From: a virus
Length of the DNA stretch: 64,000 bases
IMG/VR virus record: IMGVR_UViG_3300025617_000007
Location: 74,594-138,593 of that record
Direction: 5' to 3' (one strand)
Below, in pieces: positions 2,318 through 63,130 of this stretch. The translations under genes and the position numbers were made by a program. Within the stretch, counting starts at the first letter, position 1; the number at the start of each line of letters is the position of its first letter. The notes beneath the pieces were generated by a model, which saw only the letters and a list, made by a program, of their open reading frames with translations, ran no database searches and had not been told where the DNA came from.

Positions 2318-5117
2318 TCTTAAGATTCTTTTCTACATACTCAGTATCTACTAAATCCATAGTGTCTTCTAGATACATATAGTATGGATTAATTCCGACT
2401 TTATTCCAAAAAGTTACCTCAGTGTCAGAAAGAGTTAATACCTCATCCAAATTATCTTGGTCACCATCTCTACGTGGATATCCTCTAACTAATTCCGTTT
2501 GTGTTTTAGTGAAGAAAGGACGGTCCTTAGGGTCTTCAATTAAAATCTCAGGTCTAATCTCAGGGTCGAAAACTACCAATAGTGGTTCAATACGTTTGTT
2601 AAATGATGCTAAGTAACGAGGAACGTTGTATTCACCTAACATATCAGGTGTCTCAGTAATCATCTTCTCATCCACGTGGTAACAGTTAAGTACAATCTCC
2701 ACACTATCAGGTGGCATCGGTTTACCGTTGTCTACTGCGTATTGTCTCTTCTCAGCTGCAGTTGCATTCCATTTATTTTTCTTTTGTACATCACCGTGTG
2801 ACTTTCTCTCACCATTATTAACATAGTAGATGGTATCACCTAAACCAACAGGTAAGTTGTGTTTAATAGCTAATTCCATATGTGCCTGACGAGACATAAG
2901 TGAACCCGATTTGGTTTTTTTAGTTATATGTTTTTTATACTCCACAATACTTTGTTTTACCCTCGATTTGTTGGCAATCTTAGAGATTGGAATCTGCCTA
3001 TCATAAATCTGTTGAACATAGTCATAGTAGTGTTCTAAGAACTCGTGACCTTTACCATCCAATAACATTCTTAGACCTTTATCCAAAAACTCCGCAACAT
3101 ATGTAGGTAACTTCTTAGACTTAATAGTGTTACCTGTTAGTTTTACTTTTCCTGTGTCGGTAAGAAGAGCATAGTTTTTACGGGCCACGTTAATCGTTGA
3201 CGGCCAAACACCATCAGTATCGAGACCCATCTCACCCCTCATAAAGATATCATTATACTCAGCAACATCAGCTTCAGTACCATAATAGGTTTTACCTTCT
3301 TCAACCAAACCATTAAGTCCCTTACCCACGTAAGTATGTTCTTCACGACCAGGAGGGGATGAGAAGTTCACACCATCCGTATCCATTACTAATGCTTTGT
3401 AACCACGGTCCATAAACCACATAATCATCTGACGTAAGTATTGACGACCTGTACAAGTAATCTGTTCACCCATATCCATATCACCCCATGGAAATACGTG
3501 AGGTGCTGACAATGAACCGAAGAATGCGTTAATAAAAATCTTAATCGGTAACTGTTTACGGTTATATTTCTTAGACTCTTTTGGGTCTGAAGTATAAAGG
3601 TCGGCAGCCAACTTCTTATATTTAATACGTGTGTCACGAAAATGTTTCAACATACTCTTCATTGCACCTGTGACATCACATTTAGGGAATACATCATGAA
3701 CCAACTGAATAGACGGGTATAGTGATGAGTAATCGAGTTTTAGTACATTTGTTGAATAACCTACCGCTAAAAGACGTGATAAACCACCTGTGAATGGTCG
3801 TTTTTCACCTTTCTTAGGGATTGCTAAGTTATGTTTGTAAGACCAAGCAGCCATAATCATTTTCCATAATGTGGCAGTACCCATTGTTGATAGTCTCTCA
3901 TATGTTGTCGGAACTAACTTTGCAAGTAAGAAGTTTGCCTGATTAAACTCCTCATCAACAACCATGGTTTCCCAAATATCATCATATAGGTATCTTTCAA
4001 TAATATAATTACCATTAACTTTTTCATAGTGTCCCGGGTATTTCTCCATAAGACCTTCAGTTCCTGGTGACCCAATTTCTTTATATTTACCCGATTTAGG
4101 GTTGAAGTAATAGTCTTTATTATCAAAATAAATTTTACCAATTTTATCTCCCTCAACATACACACGGTTTTCTTTCTCCGCACCAATAAATTGTGTAATA
4201 TATTTAAGACCCCAACTCTTAATATCTGAGTTGATTGCTTGTGCTCTACGAACTGCATGTGCAATATCAACAATGTTATATCCCCACATCATCGTCTGAG
4301 TATATGGTTCCATTTCATTTGCTAATTTAAGCATACCTTCCTTTTGTCTTAGAGGTCTTTGAGGGTTAAGAGTTTTTGAAATCTTTTTTGGGTCAAGTCC
4401 CAAGATTTCAGCTCGTCTTAATATAAATGGAAAATCAAAGAATGCTGAGTTATAACCACCAATTAGTGTAGGTTTTAAATACGCTATCGTATCAAAGAAA
4501 TCGATTATAATTTTTCTCTCCTCTTCTTCATTTTCGGCAGCAATAACTTTTTCAAAACCTTTATTATCTTTCATTCCGATAAGGAATATTTGACTTTCTT
4601 CAGGTGAAAGACCTGTGGTTTCAATATCGAATACAAAACGGTGAACCTCATCGTATTCATCAAATCCTTTAAATAGTCTTTTATTTTTTTGAACTAAGTA
4701 TTGTTCAGTTGGAGGTAGAATCATTATGTGTTCTGAATTACCCATACCCCATGGGTCTAACCCTCCTGATTTAAAAAAGTTAACTAAGTTGTTGTATGAC
4801 TTAGTTGTTTTAACCATATACTTAAGTCCGTTTTCCATTCTCTCATCACCATGAGTATCTAACTTATCGATAATTATTCCATTTTCGGACATTGCTTGTT
4901 TTTGAGCGGCTTTAGAACCTCTATAGAAGTTAAGACCTCTTAGGTCACCTACCCACGCAAATGGAATGAATGTGTCTGATTTAATTACTTTACCCTGTTC
5001 AGGATGTTGAATTACTTTAAAAATTTTCCCTGATGGATAGTCATATTCTAATGCTACTATGTACTTTTCAGGGTCCTCTCCAGTGAGGAATTCTTCGATT
5101 TCTTTTTGTGATACCAT
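2286..5117 (-). CDS. Family B DNA polymerase
   Basis: Exonuclease motifs FDIETTGL, GYNSAFFDFPF, YLYDD; polymerase motifs LDYSSLYPS, KIFINAFFG, MDTDGV. Confidence 0.95.
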   Translation of the reverse strand: MVSQKEIEEFLTGEDPEKYIVALEYDYPSGKIFKVIQHPEQGKVIKSDTFIPFAWVGDLRGLNFYRGSKAAQKQAMSENGIIIDKLDTHGDERMENGLKYMVKTTKSYNNLVNFFKSGGLDPWGMGNSEHIMILPPTEQYLVQKNKRLFKGFDEYDEVHRFVFDIETTGLSPEESQIFLIGMKDNKGFEKVIAAENEEEERKIIIDFFDTIAYLKPTLIGGYNSAFFDFPFILRRAEILGLDPKKISKTLNPQRPLRQKEGMLKLANEMEPYTQTMMWGYNIVDIAHAVRRAQAINSDIKSWGLKYITQFIGAEKENRVYVEGDKIGKIYFDNKDYYFNPKSGKYKEIGSPGTEGLMEKYPGHYEKVNGNYIIERYLYDDIWETMVVDEEFNQANFLLAKLVPTTYERLSTMGTATLWKMIMAAWSYKHNLAIPKKGEKRPFTGGLSRLLAVGYSTNVLKLDYSSLYPSIQLVHDVFPKCDVTGAMKSMLKHFRDTRIKYKKLAADLYTSDPKESKKYNRKQLPIKIFINAFFGSLSAPHVFPWGDMDMGEQITCTGRQYLRQMIMWFMDRGYKALVMDTDGVNFSSPPGREEHTYVGKGLNGLVEEGKTYYGTEADVAEYNDIFMRGEMGLDTDGVWPSTINVARKNYALLTDTGKVKLTGNTIKSKKLPTYVAEFLDKGLRMLLDGKGHEFLEHYYDYVQQIYDRQIPISKIANKSRVKQSIVEYKKHITKKTKSGSLMSRQAHMELAIKHNLPVGLGDTIYYVNNGERKSHGDVQKKNKWNATAAEKRQYAVDNGKPMPPDSVEIVLNCYHVDEKMITETPDMLGEYNVPRYLASFNKRIEPLLVVFDPEIRPEILIEDPKDRPFFTKTQTELVRGYPRRDGDQDNLDEVLTLSDTEVTFWNKVGINPYYMYLEDTMDLVDTEYVEKNLKIMSSLDHQTT

Positions 5118-61801: not shown

Positions 61802-61832
61802 TTGTTTACTACAAAAAAAGTATTTATATTTG
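61802..61832 (+). promoter_or_regulatory. ssrA promoter region
   Basis: TTG-N20-TATATTTG, overlapped by TATTTATA at 61821-61828. Confidence 0.6.
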
Positions 61833-61956
61833 TATTCAGAAACAAAGGTTCTTTGAAATTATGGGGGTGAATGGAATTGATTGGCAGGGTCAGTTGCACG
61901 GGGCACGTAGTGAGATGTTATCTATCACTTTAATCTATGATGGCAATTTTGTAATC

Positions 61957-62022
61957 GGCGAAACTTTCGCAAAACTTCAGGCAGTAGGTCTCCTACGTAC
62001 TGAAGAAGTAGCTGTAGCGTAA
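61957..62022 (+). other. tmRNA tag reading frame GETFAKLQAVGLLRTEEVAVA*
   Basis: Resume context TGTAATC|GGC GAA ACT resembles the WATARNY consensus and Bacteroidota GE(T/N) tags; an alternative resume at GGC 61942 is in the same frame. Confidence 0.75.
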
Positions 62023-62231
62023 GACGTTAACAGTGAATCGGGTCGGTCAGGACATGTACCTATGAACAGAAGTCCGTTGTTGTGGTGGAAAAACGATTAA
62101 ACCCTAAATTGAGTCGTACATCTATTGGTGATGGAGGATGTAAAAATTCAATCACATATTTCGGAACATTGTGAACTAATGTTGACCTAAACGTGTAGTC
62201 CTTTGTAGGTGGACTGAACAAGACGCGGGTT

Positions 62232-62456
62232 TAACAGGGGACCCATTCAATAGTGATATTGAATTAAAAATCGGATGAATTGCTGGAACGCTAAGTCGGA
62301 AACGATACGCCAATCAGCAGCCAAGTCTAAGATACATCTTAGAAAGGTTCAGAGACTAGTGGAGAGATAGAGTTCTCTTAATAACCACATTAGCGTCCGA
62401 CATCTCAATGAGATGATGATATAGTCCATACAGTATAGAAATATATTGAGTATATG
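62232..62456 (+). ncRNA. ORF-less group I intron (IA-like, 225 nt) in the tmRNA T-loop
   Basis: P1 GGGTT/GACCC with U.G at the 5' splice site; P AATTGCTGGAA, Q AATCAGCAG, R TCAGAGACTA, S GATATAGTCC; P3 TCGGATG/CGTCCGA; P8 CATCTC/GAGATG; extra hairpin between P7 and P3'; terminal G. Confidence 0.93.
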
Positions 62457-62474
62457 CGAAACCCGCCACCTCCA

Positions 62475-62879
62475 CTACTGGGAGAAGAAGGATAAAACCA
62501 TCTTCTCCCTTTTTTCTTTCATGTCGTCAGTATACTTACCATTTCTTGGTGTCAGTTTAATGTACTGTTCGGTAACTATCGTTTTCCTATGTTTCTTTTT
62601 AGGATGATAACTATTGACATGTTTTATAACCGATAATGCGCTGTTATATTTGTAAGTTAAATCATAACTGTCTGAATGGGTTTCTTTTCTTGCCGGTTTC
62701 TTAACTATATGTCCTTTAACGTTAATTTCCAATAATATAAAATCTCTAATAGATTCTAATAATTCTTTTTCTACGTTAGTGAACCCAACGACTACTGTCT
62801 TATTTTTATTTTTATTCGGACTAACCATTGTGATATAACCATCAGCATCAAAAAATCCAGATATATAATTCCAATTCAT
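62475..62879 (-). mobile_element. Free-standing single-motif LAGLIDADG homing endonuclease gene
   Basis: YISGFFDADGYI; beta-strand VVVGFTN; 134 aa; its TAG stop occupies the tmRNA CCA position; TATTTATA at 62893-62900. Confidence 0.85.
62480..62515 (+). terminator. ssrA terminator embedded in the 3' end of the endonuclease gene
   Basis: GGGAGAAGA...TCTTCTCCC followed by T6. Confidence 0.75.
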
Positions 62880-62944
62880 AATAATATTTTATTATAAATA
62901 TGTGGAGGTGAAGTAAATTACTAACTTCTCTAAAAAATATTATT

Positions 62945-62975
62945 TTTGTGGTTTAAATAAAAAAAACTATATTTG
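62945..62975 (+). promoter_or_regulatory. Bacteroidota-type promoter (tandem copy 1)
   Basis: TTTG-N19-TATATTTG. Confidence 0.65.
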
Positions 62976-63058
62976 TAATGGTGCCTTTATAAATTCTATA
63001 TTTTTTCGTTTTATTTAAACATAAATAGAAATTACAGTTGATTATTCCAATAATAATG

Positions 63059-63089
63059 TTGTGGATTTATAAAATTTACCTTATATTTG
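63059..63089 (+). promoter_or_regulatory. Bacteroidota-type promoter (tandem copy 2)
   Basis: TTG-N20-TATATTTG. Confidence 0.65.
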
Positions 63090-63130
63090 TATTGTCAATA
63101 AGGACATAAACCACTAAAAAAAAATAAATC

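Follow-up and report, generated by a model that had tools for sequence, protein, structure and literature searches.

Collaborative (trans) homing pairs an intron with a free-standing endonuclease, and the pair formed by the psbA intron of cyanophage S-PM2 and the endonuclease F-CphI was reportedly described by Zeng, Bonocora and Shub in 2009. In this system, reviewed in PMC3984707 and PMC6083498, the target of the enzyme is the insertion site of the intron, so that intron-plus alleles are immune. Homing in trans is also known for mobE/I-TevIII of phage T4, together with intronless homing by free-standing endonucleases (PMC2790892, PMC3984707). Group I introns are found in the T-loop of transfer-messenger RNA (tmRNA) genes as well, and the available text of PMC11915505, with a 2002 report cited there, describes some that carry LAGLIDADG open reading frames (ORFs) after P9. 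Nuclear ribosomal DNA (rDNA), according to the available part of PMC9548176, has group I introns with His-Cys box endonuclease genes in sense or antisense orientation. Here, we analyse a stretch of viral DNA of 64,000 nucleotides (nt), referred to as the window, which is the final 64 kb of the 138.6-kb IMG/VR record IMGVR_UViG_3300025617_000007 (a record estimated to be 46% complete). Near its end lies a phage-encoded ssrA (tmRNA) gene whose T-loop is split by a group I intron without an ORF, and which adjoins a free-standing gene for a LAGLIDADG homing endonuclease. We consider it likely that the two are a collaborative homing pair, which is in our view the best explanation of the locus. Its parts are as follows.

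61863 to 62231, plus strand: ssrA exon 1, with the acceptor 5' strand, the 21-residue tag frame, the pseudoknot region, the T-stem 5' strand and T-loop bases 1 and 2.
62232 to 62456, plus strand: ORF-less group I intron of 225 nt, separating the second T-loop base from the third (published subsite 3).
62457 to 62474, plus strand: ssrA exon 2, with the last five T-loop bases, the T-stem 3' strand, the acceptor 3' strand and the discriminator A62474.
62475 to 62879, minus strand: free-standing, single-motif LAGLIDADG homing endonuclease gene of 134 amino acids (aa), an ORF with an ATG start, convergent to ssrA.
62480 to 62519, plus strand: intrinsic terminator of ssrA (hairpin 62480-62509 and a U-run), antisense to the C-terminal codons of the endonuclease.
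62478 to 63070, no strand: segment of about 600 bp that is missing in enzyme-less relatives, from comparison with the related loci L156 and L139; its right boundary is approximate.

The ssrA gene as a whole spans 61863-62474 on the plus strand. ARAGORN called no tRNA and no tmRNA on the raw, unspliced window and the Rfam tmRNA models gave no tmRNA call there either, and splicing in silico restored the call: when exactly 62232-62456 is excised, ARAGORN reports a standard tmRNA at 61863-62475 with a tag of 21 residues, and a one-base shift of either splice boundary loses it. The tRNA-like acceptor and T-arm and the internal tag reading frame that mark a tmRNA are found solely after this removal. 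The arrangement is not an assembly artefact, since contigs of an independent-format DNA run span exon 1, the intron, exon 2 and the end of the endonuclease ORF with zero differences. In the whole record, a group I intron and the endonuclease gene each occur once. The CCA end is encoded in relatives such as L003, L066 and others, and in the window its place at 62475-62477 is taken by CTA; therefore, CCA must be added post-transcriptionally. The spliced T-arm forms a 17-nt near-palindrome with 7 of 8 arm pairs matched. The earlier note on this DNA, made from the sequence alone, had pointed to this near-palindrome as a likely enzyme target; the symmetry is real but carries little as an argument, being a generic property of any T-arm hairpin and no special feature of this ssrA.

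The intron itself matches Rfam RF00028 at 62222-62448 on the plus strand with 101.4 bits (gathering score 50) over model positions 1-253. The final base of exon 1 is a U placed opposite a G of the internal guide in P1, and the final base of the intron is G62456. No ORF of more than 45 aa lies inside the intron, and exon 2 separates the ribozyme from the endonuclease ORF. Over 161 nt, the ribozyme core is 78.5% identical to that of the S-PM2 psbA intron. By eye, P4-P6 resembles the type of L004, L005 and S-PM2, and P8-P9 resembles L003 and L010. This mixed likeness of its parts, as far as sequence goes, suggests recombination between intron lineages.

The endonuclease gene is fitted closely to the ssrA 3' end. 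On the opposite strand, the CTA at 62475-62477, immediately past the discriminator A62474, reads as its TAG stop, and the ORF ends 18 nt past the 3' splice site of the intron. Its last codons contain the terminator hairpin of ssrA, with a folding energy of -17.9 kcal/mol (z -3.0). A simple terminator scan missed this hairpin, whose loop, taken as a plain stem-loop, exceeds the 3-8 limit of the scan. The same hairpin is present in most antisense relatives, and a clear U-run behind it is present only in those whose ORF lies outside the intron. In these respects the anatomy claimed by the earlier note is borne out, namely a free-standing LAGLIDADG gene next to an ORF-less T-loop intron (as given by the RF00028 match, two Pfam matches and the ARAGORN call after splicing), a gene end coinciding with the tmRNA 3' end, and a terminator contained in the coding sequence.

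The 134-aa protein matches the Pfam families LAGLIDADG_3 (PF14528; 33.7 bits, cut-off 22.5) and LAGLIDADG_1 (PF00961; 24.9 bits, cut-off 23.1). The LAGLIDADG motif (residues 6-14, including G8-G14), N35 and K95 are invariant across 29 relatives, and the acidic residue of the motif is intact. With these 29 relatives in the alignment, AlphaFold2 predicts the alpha-beta-beta-alpha-beta-beta-alpha topology of the LAGLIDADG fold at a mean predicted local distance difference test (pLDDT) score of 94.3. The top Foldseek matches are all LAGLIDADG enzymes (I-OnuI halves, I-TnaI, I-CreI, I-MsoI and I-Vdi141I); a sequence search of solved structures with the endonuclease found nothing significant, and the likeness came from the fold search. 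As a homodimer, the protein is modelled with a score of 0.74, and the best of three controls reached 0.00. The mark of 0.74 was attained by 20 of 30 proteins solved as one-chain pairs and by 1 of 23 solved as single chains. Contact agreement between the dimer runs is at least 96% and the partner pLDDT at least 88, and the LAGLIDADG helix (residues 1-14) forms the interface. Since solved LAGLIDADG homodimers exist, the high score may stem from resemblance to them and falls short of proof. The ratio of nonsynonymous to synonymous substitution (dN/dS) against relatives is 0.10-0.26, indicating purifying selection and therefore a gene that is maintained rather than decaying, and the ORF is intact at 133-134 aa throughout the clade in which it lies outside the intron. 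Taken with the intact motif, N35 and K95, the confident fold and the homodimer model, this makes it likely, on predicted grounds, that the endonuclease is enzymatically active.

About 150 related loci (given here by L numbers) underlie the comparison of the family. Relatives of the endonuclease are found at 44 viral loci and 14 loci in Bacteroidota genomes, and many further protein clusters of relatives exist in metagenomes; no relative was found by way of the 419-aa neighbour upstream. The introns of the relatives were placed using an intron-core profile, T-arm pairing logic and ARAGORN on sequences spliced in silico, apart from the 3' exons of L028, L034 and L063. Nearly all relatives above about 37% identity lie at an ssrA T-loop intron wherever the contig allows this to be seen, and removal of the intron restores the tmRNA. 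The insertion subsites are 2, 3, 7 and 8, and the spliced target sites share a conserved 27-nt consensus across the family. Four arrangements occur. The ORF is inside the intron and antisense at 16 resolved loci (introns of 657-768 nt), inside and sense at 9 resolved loci (whose stop codon coincides with the 3' splice site or is no more than 7 nt away), outside, downstream and sense in L051, L052 and L054, and outside, downstream and antisense in the clade of the window. In the enzyme tree, the window pairs with L003 (support 97/89) inside a clade that is entirely outside-antisense (92/64). Since the standard homing model requires it, the in-intron relatives are expected to have the site of intron insertion as their target. 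Relatives of the element are also found in Bacteroidota host ssrA genes with host-type tags.

Several of the outside forms carry a second copy of exon 2 past the ORF. The clearest case is L051, a bacterial ssrA in a Vicingaceae metagenome-assembled genome, in which exon 2 at 2435-2450 and at 2907-2922 flanks a sense endonuclease ORF. The distal copy is a perfect 16-nt match and is still preceded by a stop codon and a G, as in the in-intron forms; each copy is followed by a terminator hairpin, and ARAGORN takes either as the 3' exon. Judged from this layout, L051 is a possible intermediate between in-intron and free-standing forms, in which, for this locus, a change from inside to outside is favoured. 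In L054 the distal copy has decayed, and L036 keeps a copy of 10 nt. L010 retains, past the enzyme cassette, the native ssrA 3' end and native terminator of enzyme-less relatives. At L195 (813-905, minus strand) the cassette is followed by about 100 nt of an intronless ssrA 3' end with T-arm, acceptor and native terminator, like those of L155 and L177, and the T-loop of this partial second copy carries a C-to-A change at its middle. The duplicate copies of exon 2 and the remnants in L010 and L195 appear to be marks that rearrangement and invasion around exon 2 left behind. Since ORFs of the same family sit inside or outside the intron and on either strand, intron and enzyme gene are, as far as these arrangements indicate, separable partners that have been rearranged repeatedly around exon 2. 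The splice sites of L010 are ambiguous: ARAGORN accepts subsite 7, but P1 pairing and homology to L103 favour subsite 3 with an A replacing the terminal G. An L010 intron at subsite 3 may be splicing-defective or use another site.

The distribution of the two partners in the window's own phage-tmRNA family largely supports collaborative homing, as the earlier note had anticipated in suggesting that their co-occurrence in related phages be compared. An exact-pattern scan on the end of the tag found 119 viral stretches, about 95 of them with the same tmRNA; additional enzyme-plus relatives were taken from exact-protein look-ups, duplicates were collapsed before tallying, and L195 was left out of the tallies because its functional T-arm is cut off at the contig end. 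Most genomes of the family have neither intron nor enzyme gene. In the enzyme-less L156 and L139, about 130 nt separate ssrA, the terminator belonging to it and the DUF6011 gene, and the window's cassette adds about 600 bp at this place; L184-L190 share the synteny of the window, enzyme gene included. L066 has a T-arm and acceptor identical to those of the spliced window, without the intron and without the enzyme gene. Among canonical T-arms only, the enzyme-plus lineages number 6 with the intron and 0 without, and the enzyme-minus lineages 1 with and 23 without (p = 1.2e-5). An uninterrupted canonical arm is found in 0 of 13 enzyme-plus lineages and in 23 of 66 enzyme-minus lineages (p = 0.016). 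Seven of the 13 enzyme-plus lineages have the intron (6 in a canonical arm, L010 being ambiguous), and 6 are intronless, none of these with a canonical arm (p = 0.0047). The 6 comprise 3 with an 8-nt T-loop and 3 with a changed third stem pair, a change seen in L186, L193 and L196. A carrier can thus coexist with the enzyme by means other than the intron, since at least 6 carriers are intronless and all of them have non-canonical T-arms. The 8-nt T-loop, found in about one third of the phage tmRNA family, replaces the 7-nt TTCGA-type loop with compensatory changes in the T-stem and gives no ARAGORN call; it is present in L008, L009 and L194 and in about 22 enzyme-less loci among L065-L183 (e.g. 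L085, L113 and L140).

One sibling phage, L103, has an intron but not the LAGLIDADG gene. Its intron is ORF-less, homologous to that of the window and at subsite 3 of ssrA, and just past the ssrA terminator lies a 180-aa ORF (3267-3809, minus, the same strand as its own tmRNA). Against PHROGs, this ORF matches endonuclease (1.8e-21), endonuclease VII (4e-16) and HNH (8.6e-14) families; a Pfam search of it gave nothing. Judging by these matches, a second nuclease family fills the same niche in L103, as with F-CphI of S-PM2.

Both alleles were also encountered in nature. In DNA run X1, from one marine sample, a 2.4-kb contig ends exactly at 62231, where the assembly graph forks. At 62231/62232, one branch enters the intron (depth 12.4), and the other, at depth 5.7, leads to an exon 2 that is intronless, differs in one T-loop base and has another 3' flank; because of this fork, we conclude that intron-plus and intronless alleles coexist in a single sample. 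RNA contigs of three metatranscriptome studies cover exon 1 (61871-62211) at depths of 63-103, which suggests that the tmRNA of this or a near-identical phage is strongly expressed in the sea. Exon 1 is found in the metatranscriptomes X15, X16 and X18. In RNA run X15, the intron has a depth of 3.3, and the drop from exon 1 is consistent with removal of the intron.

Two sequence motifs near the locus may bear on its expression.

62893 to 62900, minus strand: start-proximal motif TATTTATA, a candidate phage promoter class, 13 nt ahead of the endonuclease ATG.
61825 to 61832, plus strand: Bacteroidota-type -7 promoter-like motif TAnnTTTG, about 30 nt upstream of the tmRNA 5' end, read from the sequence.

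The first was proposed earlier as a candidate late motif, and it holds up as a positional class, 14 of its 17 copies in the window lying 4-19 nt ahead of the ATG of an ORF of at least 63 aa, but not as an enriched one (17 copies in the window, 13 expected). Its sites include 849, 12292, 31682, 43198, 59867, 61800 and 62900, and the placement just ahead of ORF starts suggests, in sequence terms, a promoter class that would give very short leaders. The motif at 61825-61832 we presume to act as a promoter from general knowledge of Bacteroidota promoters; similar TAnnTTTG motifs lie at 63082-63089, ahead of the downstream DUF6011 gene, and at 62968-62975. A stretch of about 250 bp (62880-63130) that separates the endonuclease start from the DUF6011 gene is free of ORFs, and within it a Shine-Dalgarno-like motif at 62902-62910 has no start codon downstream. 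An inverted repeat of 9 bp flanks the endonuclease ORF, one arm being the acceptor 3' strand (62468-62476) and the other, at 62902-62910, its complement. Its interpretation as a relic of exon 2 or an inversion scar was rejected, the distal copy being the Shine-Dalgarno-like motif, which recurs in L003, L009 and L010. The same motif is found twice in L103, ahead of a gene there.

How would such a pair move? The 134-aa protein would form an I-CreI-like homodimer, which would cut uninterrupted ssrA DNA in the conserved T-arm (three G-C pairs, the TTCGA loop, then the acceptor strand). In a carrier, the intron would split the cut site and spare the DNA, and the ribozyme would excise the intron from the RNA, so that tmRNA function is kept. 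During mixed infection, the break in an intronless, enzyme-less relative would be repaired from the carrier, and, as the intron and the enzyme gene are about 20 bp apart, we propose that the two would be copied together. We infer where the enzyme cuts, that the intron or a variant arm confers immunity, that the intron splices itself and that intron and enzyme gene are co-converted. The free-standing endonuclease gene adjoins a gene with an ORF-less intron, and the two are co-distributed in a family in which alleles lacking both are present and the exceptions have altered T-arms. Homing in trans is the best reading of all this evidence taken together: the anatomy, a family dedicated to the T-loop, the statistical association, recipient alleles that coexist with the intron-plus form, and the traces of invasion.

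Several points weigh on the other side. The lineages compared are related, so that the Fisher tests overstate independence and their p-values are indicative only. The enzyme gene adjoins an uninterrupted ssrA in at least 6 lineages of its own clade and in L036, and the resistance of these is assumed. The 8-nt T-loop of L008 and L009, once a candidate for an enzyme-specific immunity mutation, was rejected as such; being common in enzyme-less relatives too (more than 20 have it), it is a trait of lineage and not a mark of the enzyme. In L103, the intron is present without the LAGLIDADG gene and with a different endonuclease gene instead. Known sites of homodimeric LAGLIDADG enzymes are even-centred and the T-arm palindrome is odd-centred, so its symmetry alone predicts little. 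The RNA contigs show no ligated exon junction, and neither the enzyme gene nor 62365-62950 is covered by them, absences that are uninformative. Finally, the steps of cleavage, splicing and inheritance are deduced from sequence and structural models.

Other explanations of the locus can be imagined. The gene may be a stranded relic that was once intron-encoded, was left outside when exon 2 was duplicated and a new 3' splice site arose, and now persists by linkage or moves alone, with no cooperation. Such a past is suggested by the in-intron position of the ORF in most same-family relatives, by L051, where exon 2 stands on both sides of the ORF and the distal copy keeps the junction of stop codon, terminal G and exon 2, and by the decayed distal copy of L054. 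A relic is nonetheless an unlikely account of the present state, as the ORF has stayed at full length under purifying selection across the outside clade, the gene has a promoter-class motif of its own, and the presence of the enzyme still predicts either an intron or an altered T-arm within the family; moreover, such an origin would be compatible with present cooperation. It is also conceivable that the enzyme homes without the intron, cutting the acceptor strand, the ssrA 3' flank or the DUF6011 gene, and that the intron is an unrelated passenger. This possibility, which seems to us distinctly unlikely, leaves unexplained why every enzyme-plus genome with a canonical arm has the intron (6/0 against 1/23) and why every intronless enzyme-plus genome has an altered T-arm, and for in-intron members of this protein family the expected target is the T-loop. 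What it does accommodate is the enzyme without an intron in several lineages, the different nuclease family at the same position in L103, and the tendency of free-standing endonucleases of phages to cut no more than a few hundred bp away from the gene that encodes them (PMC3984707).

The protein could also have been domesticated, either as a splicing maturase for the tmRNA intron (LAGLIDADG maturases being known, as a matter of general knowledge, in organelles) or as a nuclease directed at ssrA or tRNA genes of the host, rather than serving as a homing enzyme. The relatives of the element in Bacteroidota host ssrA would make host alleles plausible substrates, and they are the sole evidence related to the earlier note's suggestion that the enzyme possibly cuts host tRNA or tmRNA T-arm DNA; for host tRNA genes, this suggestion has no support. 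Domestication is highly improbable, given a catalytic motif conserved in full, a protein that also occurs in genomes lacking an intron for it to splice, and a presence/absence polymorphism among sibling phages such as selfish elements typically show.

Collaborative homing at a phage-encoded tmRNA gene thus remains the explanation that we favour, and it can be extended, although more tentatively. It is possible, rather than probable, that the family as a whole represents a natural series of steps in the association and dissociation of a homing endonuclease gene and a ribozyme (inside or outside, on either strand, with a duplicated exon 2 as intermediate), that pressure from the enzyme drove T-arm diversity (the 8-nt loop and the changed third stem pairs of carriers) as resistance alleles spread by co-conversion, and that the element was exchanged between Bacteroidota and phage ssrA. 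Collaborative homing has been proposed as a route by which mobile group I introns originate, and it rests on very few examples (S-PM2 psbA and T4 nrdB). The present locus extends this short list to a structural-RNA gene and a LAGLIDADG enzyme. The four placements of the ORF and the intermediates with duplicated exon 2 open this pathway to comparative study and to bench tests. Phage tmRNA genes, abundant in marine metatranscriptomes, are a site of conflict with selfish elements, which may shape a normally invariant RNA loop. Finally, there is a practical interest, as meganuclease scaffolds, in small homodimeric enzymes whose target is a near-universal sequence of an RNA gene.

In the comparison with described systems, S-PM2 stands closest. 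The ribozyme cores are alike, as shown above, and the sibling locus L103 has an Endo VII/HNH-like gene at the equivalent position. The target in the window is an RNA gene (the T-loop of ssrA), whereas that in S-PM2 is a protein gene; the window enzyme is of the homodimeric LAGLIDADG type, its cleavage being predicted, whereas F-CphI is of the Endo VII type; and the window enzyme gene is convergent to ssrA and overlaps its 3' end and terminator. As in T4, a free-standing nuclease would mobilise the adjoining intron or flanking DNA through cleavage of the allele without it, and carriers would be protected by differences in the sequence of the cut site; the nuclease family and the target gene are different, and the window's family has both intron carriers and variant-site carriers. 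The enzyme shares with the homodimeric I-CreI, I-MsoI, I-TnaI and I-Vdi141I a single motif, the same fold, a predicted symmetric dimer formed through the motif helix and, by prediction, a target in a conserved structural-RNA gene. It differs from them in sequence (10-19% identity), in being shorter, in lying outside the intron and in being antisense to its target gene.

The introns described in PMC11915505 occupy the same insertion region, and the subsites 2, 3, 7 and 8 found here are exactly the four published, subsite 3 being reported for Bacteroidia in the available text. That text places endonuclease genes only inside introns and in bacterial genomes and holds nothing on antisense ORFs, flanking free-standing ORFs or intron-bearing phages, and the part of its supplement covered here has no phage rows. 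The nuclear rDNA introns, within the available part of PMC9548176, offer a parallel in that a single intron family carries its endonuclease ORF on either strand, but they are eukaryotic and use another nuclease family, and no outside forms are described there. Previous work already covers tmRNA T-loop group I introns, their four subsites and the LAGLIDADG ORFs that some of them contain; it also covers collaborative homing and, for nuclear rDNA introns, endonuclease ORFs in either orientation. What appears to be new is a phage-borne case of a tmRNA intron with its enzyme, a free-standing convergent ORF that seemingly for the first time shares its end with the tmRNA 3' end and terminator, and the apparent occurrence of all four ORF placements, with duplicated-exon intermediates, in one enzyme-intron family.

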